DNA of 15,374 nt from a virus, in UHGV virus genome UHGV-0080089, one strand, 5' to 3'. A program made the translations under genes and the position numbers. Below the pieces are notes generated by a model. That model ran no database searches. It worked only from the letters and a program-made list of their open reading frames with translations, and was not told where the DNA came from. Of this stretch, positions 3,629-6,428 are shown piece by piece. Each line of letters opens with the position of its first letter. Positions within the stretch are counted from its first letter, which is position 1.

Positions 3629-4570
3629 TCACCCCCTGAATCCTGCCGGGATCTGGCTGTAGTCCACATTGTCGTAACTGGCTTTGAAGTACGGGTCTTC
3701 GCGTTTTTCTGTGTACGTGCTGACGGACGGCGATAAGCGCAGGGAAAGCTCATCCCATTTTTCCCGCAGCTTCGACGGGCTGAGCACGTTACGGCACCAG
3801 AACGGATCGCGGCTGACGCGGCTGTACATCTCGCAGATTTGTTTGTGAGTACGACCATCCTGCACACACATCAGGCGAATTTCGTTTGCCCAGGCTGTCC
3901 AGTTCGGTTCTTTGGGACGAACCACCTCGCCGTCACATTCGGCAGCCTGCTCGTACAGGGCGATGATTTTTTTCCAGAGCCACTGTGCGCAGGTCAAATC
4001 ATCCTGCGTCCCCCACTGGCGCTTTTTAGGGCTGAATACAACCGCATCAGGATGGCGAGTTAAAAAATCCTGTTCAGCCGTCTGCGTGTCCGGTTGCGAA
4101 GCGTCCGGACGAGAAGGTTTTTTATCTGACGGATCATGTTTTGATTTTACTGACGGATCCCCGCCAGATTCTGACGGGTGAAAACCCGCTTTTTTGCCAG
4201 ATTTCGACGCATCAAATTTTGACGGGTCAGATTTTGATGCGTCAGATTTTGACGGGTCAGAATCTGACAGTTGAGAAAATGCCGCTGCCTGAAGCTTCGC
4301 AACGTTAAGCTGATAAACATTCGACGCATTGCGGTTACCCTGGCGACGCGCCTTACGCGTTAACCAGCCTTCTGCTTCCAGCCGTGCGATAGCCGTTCTG
4401 ACGGTACTCATCCCCGCGCCAATCTGACGGGCAATGGTTTCAATTGATGGCCAGCACACACCTTCGTCATTACTGAAATCAGCCAGGCGGGCCATAATTG
4501 CCACGCTGGATAACTTCATGCCTGATGCAGCGCAACCATCCCATACATAGCCGGTTAATTTAGTGCTCAT
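3629..4570 (-). CDS. Phage replication initiation protein (lambda O-like architecture: N-terminal HTH, internal iteron-encoded linker, C-terminal domain)
   Basis: 313 aa; ATG 4570 with SD AGAGGT; N-terminal wHTH (SVAIMARLADFSNDEGVCWPSIETIARQIGAGMSTVRTAIARLEAEGWL); central peptide repeats SDPSKSDASKSDPSKFDASKS encoded by 15-bp DNA direct repeats. Confidence 0.7.
   Translation of the reverse strand: MSTKLTGYVWDGCAASGMKLSSVAIMARLADFSNDEGVCWPSIETIARQIGAGMSTVRTAIARLEAEGWLTRKARRQGNRNASNVYQLNVAKLQAAAFSQLSDSDPSKSDASKSDPSKFDASKSGKKAGFHPSESGGDPSVKSKHDPSDKKPSRPDASQPDTQTAEQDFLTRHPDAVVFSPKKRQWGTQDDLTCAQWLWKKIIALYEQAAECDGEVVRPKEPNWTAWANEIRLMCVQDGRTHKQICEMYSRVSRDPFWCRNVLSPSKLREKWDELSLRLSPSVSTYTEKREDPYFKASYDNVDYSQIPAGFRG
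4122..4273. repeat. Iteron-like direct repeats (~15-bp units AGATTTTGACGGGTC / AGATTTTGATGCGTC) inside the replication gene; candidate replication origin
   Basis: Four contiguous 15-bp units at 4214..4273 (aaattttgacgggtc, agattttgatgcgtc, agattttgacgggtc, agaatctgacagttg) plus spaced copies at 4165..4180 and 4198..4213 and TGACGG cores at 4127 and 4152. Confidence 0.6.
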
Positions 4571-4918
4571 GACCGACCTCTATTTCCCTGAATTTACGAC
4601 GAAACTGTTCGAGCGGACTGAAGCATTCATGCTCATAACCTTCGCGGAGGTAGATAACCCGTTGTGTTTCCGGCTCCCAACGAATGACTCTGACGGGCAC
4701 TCCGTAGTGATCTTTGAACCAGCGGTTAACTTGTCGCAAAGGACTGTCTCCTTCTGCCGGTTGAAATCACCCACAGCCCACTCTGCAAAGCTGTGGGTTA
4801 CAATTTCCCTGTCACCTGGTACATTCACTGCATAGCAATATTCCACCTTCGCTTTTCCACCCGGAACAGGAAGCGCAATCAGTTGCGAGCGACGGTAGTG
4901 TGTTGTTAAACTGTTCAT
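4563..4918 (-). pseudogene. Frameshift-disrupted small phage gene (~115 aa if restored) between the cII-position gene and the replication gene
   Basis: Track ORF 4580..4918 starts protein-like ([55 protein letters not shown]) then turns into low-complexity sequence; a second frame open from 4766 to stop 4562..4560 reads [65 protein letters not shown] with no ATG. Frame switch lies within ~4750..4770, next to an 8-bp-stem hairpin at 4771..4798. Confidence 0.4.
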
Positions 4919-5523
4919 GCGTTAGTTTCTCCACAGTCACGACACGCTACGGCGCCCGGAGCTGCACACTCGCGGGCGTCATTACTTTCTGAAATGCAAA
5001 AAATTTTGTAGACCAGTGCTGCATGCTCCTGCAGCTTCGAAATTGAGAGGTAGAGCTCGTCATTAATTGCTGTCTTCTCATGCGGTTCCACTACACCGTC
5101 TTCGATTGCTGAACGAATCTGTTTTGAATAACTGCCGATCTGTTCAATGACTTCCAGCAGACGCTGGTTAATATCGGCGTTGTCCACATCCTCGACGTCA
5201 GGAAGAGACACAAAGACGCCATTTGCAGACTGCGCCACAGCATCAGCAATGAAGTGAGTTCCACCAGCACGTTGCAAAATCATTGCCCATCCCAGCGGGA
5301 AAATCTGATCGCCATCGGCACGAAGGCGGTTAAATAATGCGTTCTCTGTTACATCCAGCCAGTCAGCAGCTTCAGCGTAACCCCCCGGCAACGCTGCGAT
5401 AGTTTTTCTGACAGCTTTCACGTACCACTCAGGCTGTTTGTCTACTTTCCAGTGATGCTTACCCACGGTTAGCCTCATCGTTCTGTGGTTTCTGTTAATC
5501 GATTTATCCATTAGATTTTTCAT
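4915..5523 (-). CDS. Early regulatory protein in the cII position (possibly YdaT-like); C-terminal Cys cluster
   Basis: Track ORF 4915..5580 begins at GTG; first ATG at 5523 (MKNLMDK...) chosen, alternative ATG 5511 overlaps the cro-like stop. Weak SD for both. C-terminus [13 protein letters not shown]. Family assignment is by position after the YdaS-like gene, not sequence. Confidence 0.55.
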
Positions 5524-5704
5524 AAAGCTCAGGTTTAAATGGCAACCGTCCGCAAGTTCTATATGCAGCTTCTGCTGCACGTCCTTTTGGAATTAACTGG
5601 CCCGGACGGTTTCGCCACTGATAAACGGCTTCAGTTGTTATGCCGAAAAAAGCAGCAACTTTCTCAATACTGCCGAAGTAGCTTTCGATATCGTCAGTTG
5701 TCAT
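5504..5704 (-). CDS. Cro-like / YdaS-family HTH regulator
   Basis: 66 aa; ATG 5704 with strong SD (GGAGGG 6 nt upstream); HTH region VAAFFGITTEAVYQWRNRPGQLIPKGRAAEAAYRTCG; divergent from cI across a 97-bp operator region. Confidence 0.75.
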   Translation of the reverse strand: MTTDDIESYFGSIEKVAAFFGITTEAVYQWRNRPGQLIPKGRAAEAAYRTCGRLPFKPELYEKSNG

Positions 5705-5801
5705 ACGCCCTCCAAACTAAGTTTTATTAGATGCTAATTACAAATCTATCTTTGGTCAATAAAAACTAAGATTACTTAGTAATTAAAGAAATGGTGCTCC
5801 T
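5705..5801. promoter_or_regulatory. Immunity-region divergent promoter/operator region (OR-like)
   Basis: Perfect 16-bp palindrome ACTAAGattaCTTAGT at 5765..5780; related imperfect site ACTAAGttttATTAGa at 5716..5731. Minus-strand promoter candidate for the cro-like gene: -35 TTGACC (5759..5754), 17-bp spacer, -10 TAGCAT (5736..5731). Confidence 0.6.
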
Positions 5802-6428
5802 ATGGAAACGGTTGGTCAGCGTATAAAAGCTCTGAGAAGAGTTACCAGAACGTCCCAGAAAGAATTGGGTAAATTTTGTGGAGTAAGCGACGTTGCTGTG
5901 GGGTACTGGGAGAAAGACATCAATACCCCTGGTGGGGAGGCACTTTCGAAATTAGCGAAGTTCTTCAATACGTCAATAGATTACATTCTTTATGGTGCTG
6001 AGTTTGAAGGCAAACTCGTCACAAACATGCGCAGAGTTCCTGTAATATCGTGGGTTCAGGCTGGGCAGTTTACTGAGTGCAGGGCAGCAGAAGTGTTTAG
6101 TGAAGTGGACAAGTGGGTAGATACATCATTAAAGATTGGTGATAACTCATTTGCATTAGAGGTTAAAGGTGACTCCATGACTAACCCTAATGGCCTCCCA
6201 ACAATACCAGAAGGCGCAACAGTGATTGTAGATCCAGATGCAGAACCTCGTCATGGAAAAATAGTCATCGCTCGACTTGATGGAACAAACGAAGCTACAG
6301 TAAAAAAATTAGTCATCGATGGCCCTCAAAAGTTTTTAGTGCCATTAAATCCTCGGTATCCCAACATCCCTATCAATGGTAATTGCCTTATCATTGGTGT
6401 AGTCAAAGGAGTTCAATACGAACTCTAA
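5802..6428 (+). CDS. cI: CI-type prophage repressor (HTH_XRE + S24 LexA-like peptidase domain)
   Basis: 208 aa; N-terminal HTH (QKELGKFCGVSDVAVGYWEKD); Ala-Gly in VISWVQAGQF; Ser nucleophile in GDSM and Lys in VKKLV with S24 spacing. Confidence 0.9.
   Translation: METVGQRIKALRRVTRTSQKELGKFCGVSDVAVGYWEKDINTPGGEALSKLAKFFNTSIDYILYGAEFEGKLVTNMRRVPVISWVQAGQFTECRAAEVFSEVDKWVDTSLKIGDNSFALEVKGDSMTNPNGLPTIPEGATVIVDPDAEPRHGKIVIARLDGTNEATVKKLVIDGPQKFLVPLNPRYPNIPINGNCLIIGVVKGVQYEL

Follow-up and report, generated by a model that had tools for sequence, protein, structure and literature searches.

The ymfM/DUF4222 locus of an e14-like prophage: two probable small genes in overlapping frames and candidate regulatory DNA for the opposite strand

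Why would the minus strand of the virus genome UHGV-0080089 encode, between positions 4560 and 4918, two protein-like segments in different frames right beside an inverted repeat? The stretch of DNA analyzed (15,374 nucleotides (nt) in its entirety, hereafter the window, in whose numbering all coordinates are given) is, as indicated by genome matches and synteny, an e14-like lambdoid prophage of Escherichia coli. The initial annotation of this locus had correctly recognized both of the segments, which can be delimited as a 112-amino-acid (aa) open reading frame (ORF) in frame 0 and a 59-aa ORF in the -1 frame, but regarded a 1-nt indel, i.e., a pseudogene or a sequencing error, as the most likely cause of their arrangement. 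The comparisons presented here point elsewhere: 4560-4918 very probably represents two separately initiated small genes, ymfM and a DUF4222 gene, and not a damaged one, and we assign a probability of roughly 0.7 to the whole explanation, in which these two genes are accompanied by regulatory DNA for the opposite strand.

Two genes in two frames

The longer of the two, ymfM (K-12 b1148, reported as sfiC), occupies 4580-4918 on the minus strand, from an ATG at 4918 to a TAG at 4580-4582, matches PHROG 1170 with E = 7.6e-70, and has homologs of 108-117 aa showing 47-65% identity. The DUF4222 gene (59 aa, WP_001250269.1 as annotated by the Prokaryotic Genome Annotation Pipeline (PGAP), Pfam PF13973) lies at 4560-4739 of the same strand, beginning with a TTG at 4739, which is preceded at a distance of 8 nt by the Shine-Dalgarno (SD) sequence AAGGAG (4748-4753, minus strand), and ending with a TAA at 4560-4562. 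They share 160 nt, the DUF4222 gene being in the -1 frame relative to ymfM, and it is in the -1 frame only that PF13973 is matched (68.4 bits against a cut-off of 27, E = 3.8e-19, model positions 1-52 of 53); no family was matched for the 112-aa ymfM ORF in the Pfam and NCBIfam searches. As the -1 frame is closed by a TGA at 4767-4769, any frame switch would be confined to 4740-4768, which is close to, but not the same as, the 4750-4770 initially proposed, and a direct reading of 4737-4768 bears out the initial remark that no canonical slippery heptamer is present. The window's YmfM agrees with that of K-12 (J53 ORF) at 111 of 112 residues, the sole difference being located in the tail, while the DUF4222 proteins of the two are identical.

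Some 1,900 complete E. coli genomes share this two-frame layout, as do lineages whose protein identity is as low as approximately 45%. A 701-nt query around the locus matched 2,695 of the 5,426 complete E. coli genomes searched, in 1,909 of which the match extended over 80% or more of the query, mostly at 95-99% identity; the identity of the region to the e14-like prophages in these 1,909 genomes is 97.6-99.9%. A scan of genome contigs yielded 6 loci only. RefSeq names ymfL, a "DUF4222 domain-containing protein", and a helix-turn-helix replication protein at the matched loci. The start of the DUF4222 gene (TTG in the E. coli types, ATG or GTG elsewhere) falls at one aligned position in every lineage examined, and an SD-like motif (GGAG, GAGG or AAGG) is found 7-10 nt upstream of it in all of the listed lineage sequences but one (L089), in which the SD is located further upstream; in one lineage (L091), an in-frame stop stands just 2 codons upstream of this start. 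The 139 DUF4222 homologs found are standalone proteins (those listed being mostly 59-86 aa long, except for partial entries and P0053), the aligned ones all begin at the same residue, and the 59-aa ORF aligns end to end with the annotated members of the family.

Within-species variation tells the same two frames apart. In a population sample of 77 E. coli-type loci, representing 47 haplotypes, all 17 variants found within 4740-4918 are synonymous in the ymfM frame, and codon position 3 accounts for 13 of the 14 polymorphic sites (P = 6e-6), whereas in the overlap (4580-4739) it is position 3 of the DUF4222 codons that holds 12 of the 16 polymorphic sites (P = 8e-4), these being synonymous there and nonsynonymous in ymfM. 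The frame under selection thus changes exactly at the DUF4222 start, and the amino-acid constraint within ymfM is confined to its N-terminal domain (YmfM-N; codons 1 to ~60, 4740-4918 on the minus strand). As for synonymous diversity, DUF4222 in the overlap (12/53 codons) is on a par with the part of ymfM that is not overlapped (13/60). The AlphaFold2 models are in line with such a division: DUF4222 is predicted with a mean predicted local distance difference test (pLDDT) score of 84 as a small SH3/Tudor/KOW-like beta-barrel, and YmfM, at 48.7 overall, shows 10-residue block means of 55-68 over residues 11-60 and of 30-45 (~33) in the tail, a model too poor for a fold search.

The two modules are, moreover, found apart from each other. 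YmfM-N alone, as a protein of 63-78 aa, is encoded in Entomohabitans and by Providencia phage PSTRCR_117lys; in Atlantibacter, a YmfM-N of 75 aa is accompanied by a remnant of DUF4222, most of which has been deleted; the order in Citrobacter phage phiNP is YmfM-N, rha, DUF4222; the YmfM-N stop overlaps the DUF4222 ATG in Providencia prophages (an ATGA junction); and the modules are also separate in YeP3. The DUF4222 domain, wholly overlapped by another ORF in the window, is not so in the Providencia, phiNP, Serratia, and Yersinia members. YmfM-N itself is retained across genera at 41-75% identity, PHROGs contains both 112-aa and 63-aa YmfM-type families, and a HMMER search with YmfM-N recovered a small family of 56 representatives, plus multi-repeat surface proteins (Flg_new, DUF7507), which we regard as summed weak repeat matches. 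The weak match of YmfM-N residues 19-50 to such Listeria-Bacteroides repeat (Flg_new)/DUF7507 proteins (P0214, P0231, P0236) might possibly reflect a distant fold relationship, or possibly just noise.

How do the explanations that make do with a single gene fare against this? The notion that a 1-nt indel has split an ancestral YmfM-N-DUF4222 gene of ~115 aa gains something from the single-frame ORFs of 102-119 aa that do exist in public assemblies (P0031, P0053, P0060, P0065), and for which the initial annotation had suggested looking among the homologs. These, however, are rare indel variants, represented by 1-14 member sequences against 1,295 in the normal-form cluster P0004, and their junctions are all different, as is to be expected of independent indels or assembly errors; the two-frame form, on the other hand, is present not only in the said ~1,900 genomes but also in at least 11 diverged lineages, each half is under purifying selection in its own frame, DUF4222 proteins are standalone everywhere, and phiNP, the Providencia phages, and YeP3 have the modules apart. 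Homologs displaying two separate genes with their own starts were just what the initial annotation had named as speaking against an indel, which we consider refuted and leave with a next to negligible probability. Programmed -1 frameshifting linking YmfM-N to DUF4222, with the hairpin as a stimulator, seems extremely improbable as well, in spite of DUF4222 being in the appropriate frame with a stable stem-loop nearby: no X XXY YYZ heptamer is seen in 4740-4768 (GAT TTC AAC CGG CAG AAG GAG ACA GTC CTT TGC), the stem-loop (4798-4769) is situated 5' of the permissive stretch, whereas stimulators act from the 3' side, 5-9 nt downstream, the stretch open in both frames is not conserved (2 codons in L091, 10-15 elsewhere, variable within E. 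coli), the upstream TGA is often lost among the E. coli haplotypes without consequence, DUF4222 has its own conserved SD and start, and the hairpin persists where DUF4222 is not adjacent. A prfB-like +1 shift at CUU UGC was rejected, being in the wrong direction and lacking an in-frame stop.

The converse simplification, implicit in the RefSeq/PGAP annotation, would accept the DUF4222 gene alone as real and dismiss the 112-aa ymfM ORF as an artefact of annotation, and it might draw on PGAP calling the 59-aa protein only, even in a K-12 derivative, on the lack of a Pfam or NCBIfam family for ymfM, and on the 5' half of ymfM being crowded with opposite-strand promoter elements. The three-base periodicity within 4740-4918 nevertheless shows protein-level selection on ymfM, as promoter constraints alone would not produce it, and the overlap of the ymfM ATG with the ymfL stop (ATGA), the retention of the N-terminal domain across genera, and the two PHROGs families likewise make this view very unlikely. 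The annotations themselves are in conflict: PGAP keeps only the 59-aa DUF4222 protein and drops ymfM (L001 being E. coli D6 and L002 being J53, the K-12 derivative), unlike the literature and PHROGs, which treat ymfM as a 112-aa gene.

We thus return to two separately initiated genes. The DUF4222 gene would initiate independently at TTG 4739 behind its AAGGAG, and its product would be, as modeled, a 59-aa SH3/Tudor-like beta-barrel. A predicted SD-sequestering hairpin at 4736-4757, pairing the DUF4222 SD and start, was considered and dismissed, as it is not conserved and its energies in ten other lineages are near the shuffle means. Lambda Rz/Rz1 and other nested out-of-frame phage pairs offer a parallel in that a complete small gene likewise resides inside another ORF, each with a start of its own; both frames of Rz/Rz1 are constrained and functional, however, whereas only the DUF4222 frame is constrained in the overlap described here, the other one being merely open. 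Antisense to DUF4222/ymfM, there is also a 90-aa ORF with a GTG start (4563-4835, plus strand), which is without support and is probably a shadow of the opposite-strand genes.

A tail that stays open

Two points weigh against the two-gene explanation: the TTG with which the DUF4222 gene starts is a weak start codon, and the presence of two genes does not explain why the ymfM tail, i.e., the +1-frame reading of the DUF4222 gene (4583-4739, minus strand), remains stop-free. Since ymfM has no stop at the end of its conserved domain, its ORF crosses the entire DUF4222 domain in the +1 frame, giving a tail that is Ser/Thr/Ala-rich, poorly conserved, unconstrained in sequence, and predicted to be disordered. 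The openness of this tail was evaluated in 11 clusters, whose nucleotide identity across the DUF4222 domain is below 85%, against a null of synonymous resampling: no +1-frame stops are found inside DUF4222 in nine of the clusters, and the remaining two have a terminal stop only, while 2-3 stops per cluster would be expected (P(0) = 0.009-0.08 each); as a chance baseline, ~10% of 53-codon stretches taken from the long ORFs of the window lack stops. If YmfM-N ends upstream of DUF4222 (the Providencia types, phiNP), the same frame contains 2-7 stops, and in Serratia phage BZS1, whose DUF4222 gene is preceded by a KilA-N gene, that frame contains four. The ORF lengths fall into two classes, one of 63-80 aa and one of 108-117 aa or more, and no ORF terminates inside DUF4222; in other mosaics the same frame is open into the Ash and Rha domains, making up ORFs of 383 and 553 aa. 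In three such loci (L051 2501-4159, L101 1052-2203, and L099 1058-2215), an ORF that starts with a YmfM-like ATG passes through DUF4222 in the +1 frame into Ash/Rha and is annotated as one "Rha/Sb41" protein, and the open frame of L051 also spans an AT-rich insert of ~190 codons.

The most economical idea for the open tail, and it is offered as an idea, is translational coupling or the delivery of ribosomes. No more than ~16 nt separate the ymfM stop from the start of the next gene, whose frame ymfM shares in most lineages, the start of the next large gene being nearly always in the ymfM frame; in the window, the ATG of the O-like gene is situated 10 nt past the ymfM stop and 8 nt before the DUF4222 stop, also in the frame of ymfM. 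In the layout proposed, translation of ymfM would start at ATG 4918, coupled to the ymfL stop, and yield the conserved ~60-aa domain, whereupon the ribosomes would run through 53 further codons in the +1 frame of the DUF4222 gene and terminate just before the O-gene ATG, with the tail being a passenger in its sequence, yet kept stop-free. Such a tail might be kept open for the destination of the ribosome and not for coding, as a kind of "ribosome conveyor" across the nested DUF4222 gene to the next large gene (O, or Ash/Rha), a tentative suggestion to which we lend limited credence. We would be just as hesitant about true dual coding, whereby the tail is open for being a functional part of YmfM, e.g., a disordered region needed for division inhibition or turnover: the absence of internal +1 stops from all 11 clusters against the expected 2-3, the lack of any lineage terminating inside DUF4222, and the frame open for 383-553 codons into Ash/Rha domains would all suit it, but the tail shows no amino-acid constraint (synonymous diversity in the overlap being no lower than outside of it), has a pLDDT of ~33, and is missing altogether from the standalone YmfM-N proteins of 63-65 aa.

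The inverted repeat and the promoters on the opposite strand

The element that the initial annotation had described as a hairpin with an 8-bp stem at 4771-4798 is a real inverted repeat, ACCCACAGC-N12-GCTGTGGGT, which, as measured here, spans 4769-4798 (no strand being assigned), has arms at 4769-4777 and 4790-4798 that are complementary at 9 of 9 positions and 12 nt apart, and half-site centers at ~4773.5 and 4793.5, i.e., 20-21 bp from each other. It is the only one of its kind in the 15-kb window, with a chance expectation of 0.07. Its RNA fold energy is unremarkable (z = -1.7; 9 of 200 shuffles fold as well), so that its significance derives from conservation and covariation: the five core pairs are complementary in 34 of 34 distinct sequences, and two positions covary (CG:22/UA:12 and AU:16/CG:12/GU:6), one of them being a synonymous site (Val49, GTG vs. 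GTA), with a covariation score of 0.298 against 0.170 for shuffled (0/500) and at most 0.086 for slid alignments. T4769, which serves at once as the last base of the Gly50 codon, as the T of the -1-frame TGA, and as a member of the outermost pair of the repeat, is replaced by G, C or A in 17 of the 77 E. coli-type loci, hence neither that stop nor the ninth pair is conserved. The repeat as such is conserved in all of the YmfM-N lineages, including those in which DUF4222 is not adjacent, and is therefore not tied to the frame junction; the spacing of its half-sites is constant throughout.

Immediately upstream of ymfM lies ymfL (4915-5466, minus strand), encoding a CII-like regulator (Pfam Phage_CP76, PF06892, E = 2e-13; NCBIfam NF041471 (YmfL), E = 9e-50; also annotated by RefSeq in the near-identical L001), whose Pfam family also includes CII of phage 186. 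The type of the half-sites goes along with the type of this protein: CCCAC(A/G)-type half-sites pair with one YmfL helix-turn-helix type in 16 lineages, and CTACC-type ones with a "S.xTF.N..Y" helix-turn-helix in five, among them phages of Klebsiella and Providencia, which are not closest to each other in their YmfM-N proteins. "Family-2" phages (PhiR40_1, ST64B, Eeyore, YeP3), in which the encoded peptide is very different and the complementarity of the arms is just 4-6 bp, nevertheless keep the CCCACA half-sites, their spacing, and their 21-nt distance to a -10 element.

This -10 element belongs to the proposed leftward promoter P1 (4797-4825, plus strand), consisting of a -35-like GTTACA (4797-4802), a 17-nt spacer, a TG (4817-4818), and a -10 TACATT (4820-4825), with a predicted transcription start site at ~4832, which would place the repeat arms at about -38 and -59. 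In every lineage, a TGn followed by a -10-like hexamer (TATATT, TATTCT, TACTCT, TAATCT, and TATCAT being the variants seen elsewhere) is found on the plus strand exactly 21 nt past the proximal arm, and the TAnnnT of the -10 is preserved by way of rare ymfM codons, codon 33 always being xTA and Arg32 always being AGA. A consensus promoter scan missed P1 as well as the promoter P2 discussed below, presumably as they fall below its reporting threshold; P1 scores 8 of 12.

Phage 186 provides a close precedent, its CII half-sites being located at -38/-58 of pE in an unusual two-turn geometry (PMC6593788). Upon inspection, the 186 sequence reads ATGTTTG-N14-CAAACAT with a 21-nt gap to the -10, the same distance from the proximal half-site as in the window, and further points of likeness are the adjacent regulator of the same Pfam family, the inverted half-sites two helical turns apart, and a promoter (a predicted one here) aimed at cI, against the lytic operon. 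The half-sites themselves differ (CCCACAG here, ATGTTTG in 186), and the site lies 117-146 bp past the ymfL stop, inside ymfM, unlike those of 186 and lambda pRE, which are at the 5' end of cII. By analogy with CII at pE, YmfL may bind the repeat and activate P1, which would then fire on the plus strand through ymfL and cro toward the cI-like repressor gene, possibly with a role in the establishment of lysogeny.

Taken together, the two-turn spacing, the fixed 21-nt gap to the -10, the match between half-site and helix-turn-helix types, and the retention in family-2 phages favor the repeat being a DNA operator, with half-sites at about -38/-59 of P1, and we consider it probable, albeit with considerable reservations, that it is the YmfL/CII-type operator of this leftward promoter. 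Several observations count against such an assignment: lambda and 186 have the corresponding promoter at the 5' end of cII, whereas P1 is downstream of the cII-like gene; a hairpin resembling a terminator (4951-4980) stands between P1 and cI, so that P1 transcripts may never reach the latter; P1, having an extended -10, might be constitutive; the covariation of the arms would be equally expected of an RNA stem; and the link between half-site and helix-turn-helix types is based on few independent events and may in part be due to linkage. The alternative that has to be weighed here is indeed an RNA stem-loop, formed by the rightward mRNA and acting through pausing, as a barrier to RNA decay, or on the translation of the downstream gene, as folding predicts a stem of 11 bp within a 101-nt structure of -31.8 kcal/mol, six sequences have G-U pairs, which are tolerated in RNA but break the symmetry in DNA, and the element is always 25-45 nt upstream of the start of the next gene. 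The arms of 4-6 bp with loops of 14-16 nt seen in family-2 phages would be too weak for it, though, while spacing and the distance to the -10 are still exact; the fold has a z of just -1.7, neither a U-tract nor an Rfam family is found, and the half-site type tracks that of the neighboring helix-turn-helix protein, all of which renders an RNA stem rather unlikely in our opinion.

A regulatory role of the hairpin, raised in the initial annotation, is consequently supported, but the analogy with lambda tR1/nutR drawn there fails. In lambda, nutR/tR1 are positioned between cro and cII and feature a boxB-type 5-bp stem with a pentaloop, as well as a terminator U-tract. The element of the window comes after the cII-like gene, has a stem of 9-11 bp with a loop of 8-12 nt followed by GAUUUCAACC, and shows no U-tract, no call in the terminator scan, and no Rfam hit; the consensus terminator/promoter scan did not call the repeat, and Rfam at a permissive threshold gave no hit over the whole of 4300-5800. 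A terminator of an antisense RNA was rejected for want of a conserved T-run on either strand, as was a cI/cro operator, the cI-cro operators being CTAAG..CTTAG-type palindromes and the repeat being unique in the window. The cI-cro intergenic region (5715-5790) has AT-rich palindromes (ACTAAG....., CTAAGATTACTTAG), presumably the repressor/Cro operators, which are unrelated to the 4769-4798 repeat.

The beginning of ymfM carries yet another plus-strand signal. In the 11 lineage representatives, hardly any variation is seen at the synonymous sites of ymfM codons 2-6, 11-12, and 14-15, Leu4 being the rare TTA in all of them, and on the plus strand these sites read TTGCGA-N18-TGtTAAACT, i.e., a promoter, P2 (4883-4912), whose synonymous sites are conserved across genera and which lies in ymfM codons 2-12, with its -35 TTGCGA at 4883-4888, an 18-nt spacer, and TGt plus the -10 TAAACT at 4907-4912. 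Just downstream, at 4916-4995 of the plus strand, is the homolog of the oop-like K-12 small RNA (sRNA) candidate ECS003, identified by its sequence match (PMC3175480, Additional file 4) and fold; it starts opposite the ymfM ATG, runs antisense to the ymfM start/ribosome-binding site and the 3' end of ymfL, and has a terminator-like hairpin (the one at 4951-4980) followed by a U-rich tail. ECS003 was detected in a small-RNA survey of K-12, where it was the most abundant of the cis-antisense sRNA candidates for which a sigma-70 promoter was predicted, with a read region of 116 nt and a northern band of ~70 nt (Shinhara 2011, PMC3175480). A second conserved plus-strand promoter inside ymfM, P2, makes the oop-like antisense sRNA ECS003.

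Lambda oop is a short leftward RNA transcribed from pO just downstream of cII and antisense to the 3' end of the latter. ECS003 parallels it in position and orientation, and differs in that there is no sequence similarity, that the ymfM ribosome-binding site is covered too, and that ymfM codons 2-12 contain the promoter. Opposite the 4951-4980 hairpin lies the coding sequence of the conserved C-terminal peptide of YmfL (..DARECAAPG..), and the RNA element may be what drives the conservation of the peptide. A small palindrome, CGCAACTGATTGCG (4874-4887), overlaps the -35 of P2, and its synonymous positions (Ile14 ATT, Ala15 GCG) show no variation between lineages, a hint of a further protein site or structure.

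Gene neighborhood and the identity of SfiC

The order of the genes on the minus strand is cro (5504-5704), ymfL (CII/CP76 family), ymfM, the DUF4222 gene, and the gene of an O-like replication initiator (HTH_36; 3629-4570, from Pfam and RefSeq annotation), the start of which is overlapped by the DUF4222 stop; a cI-like LexA-family repressor gene is located on the plus strand at 5802-6428. The K-12 e14 element has the same gene order, ymfT-ymfL-ymfM, but a deletion joins its remnant to a terminase gene, whereas the prophage of the window is intact downstream and has a full O-like gene. Phage 186 resembles the e14-like phages in its gene neighborhood as well, the gene directly after cII being a division inhibitor (fil; L277 1053-1280), a place taken by ymfM in e14-like phages; blastp revealed no similarity of Fil of 186 to either YmfM or DUF4222 (E >= 0.5). 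The parts of the locus, namely ymfM, the DUF4222 family, ECS003, and the CP76 family, are already known; of their arrangement (a nested pair with a stop-free, unconstrained overlap, together with a putative 186-type operator/promoter and an oop-like promoter in the same codons), no description was found in the searchable literature.

SfiC reportedly remained an unidentified SOS-associated division inhibitor for 35 years, until its assignment to ymfM in 2020-21. The original library clone D1-8E carries both ymfM and the DUF4222 gene complete, and the cloned "ymfM open reading frame" (pBAD-ymfM) includes the DUF4222 SD, start, and whole Pfam domain, the last six codons alone being missing. In the study reporting ymfM as sfiC, an SOS-inducible division inhibitor, expression from pBAD24 blocks Z-ring formation, deletion of ymfM lowers SOS filamentation in a sulA-deletion background, and ymfM is handled as a simple 112-aa gene, with the nested DUF4222 gene unmentioned (Ansari et al., bioRxiv 10.1101/2020.11.19.390815). 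As every SfiC construct also carries DUF4222, the division inhibition is attributable to either product, and the nested DUF4222 protein, instead of or together with the 112-aa YmfM, could be SfiC. RefSeq, for its part, keeps the DUF4222 gene only.

Beyond the question of SfiC, the locus displays an unusual kind of overlap, in which one frame is constrained in its sequence and the other one just to stay open, in at least 11 diverged lineages, and which constitutes a clean natural case for asking what keeps an ORF open. On top of their own coding, the first 50 codons of ymfM carry signals for the other strand, namely two conserved promoters and a candidate CII-type operator. Such an arrangement suggests the use of a 186-style lysogeny-establishment circuit by e14, SfII, SfIV, SfV, and ST64B-like phages, and supplies the uncharacterized YmfL family with a testable function.

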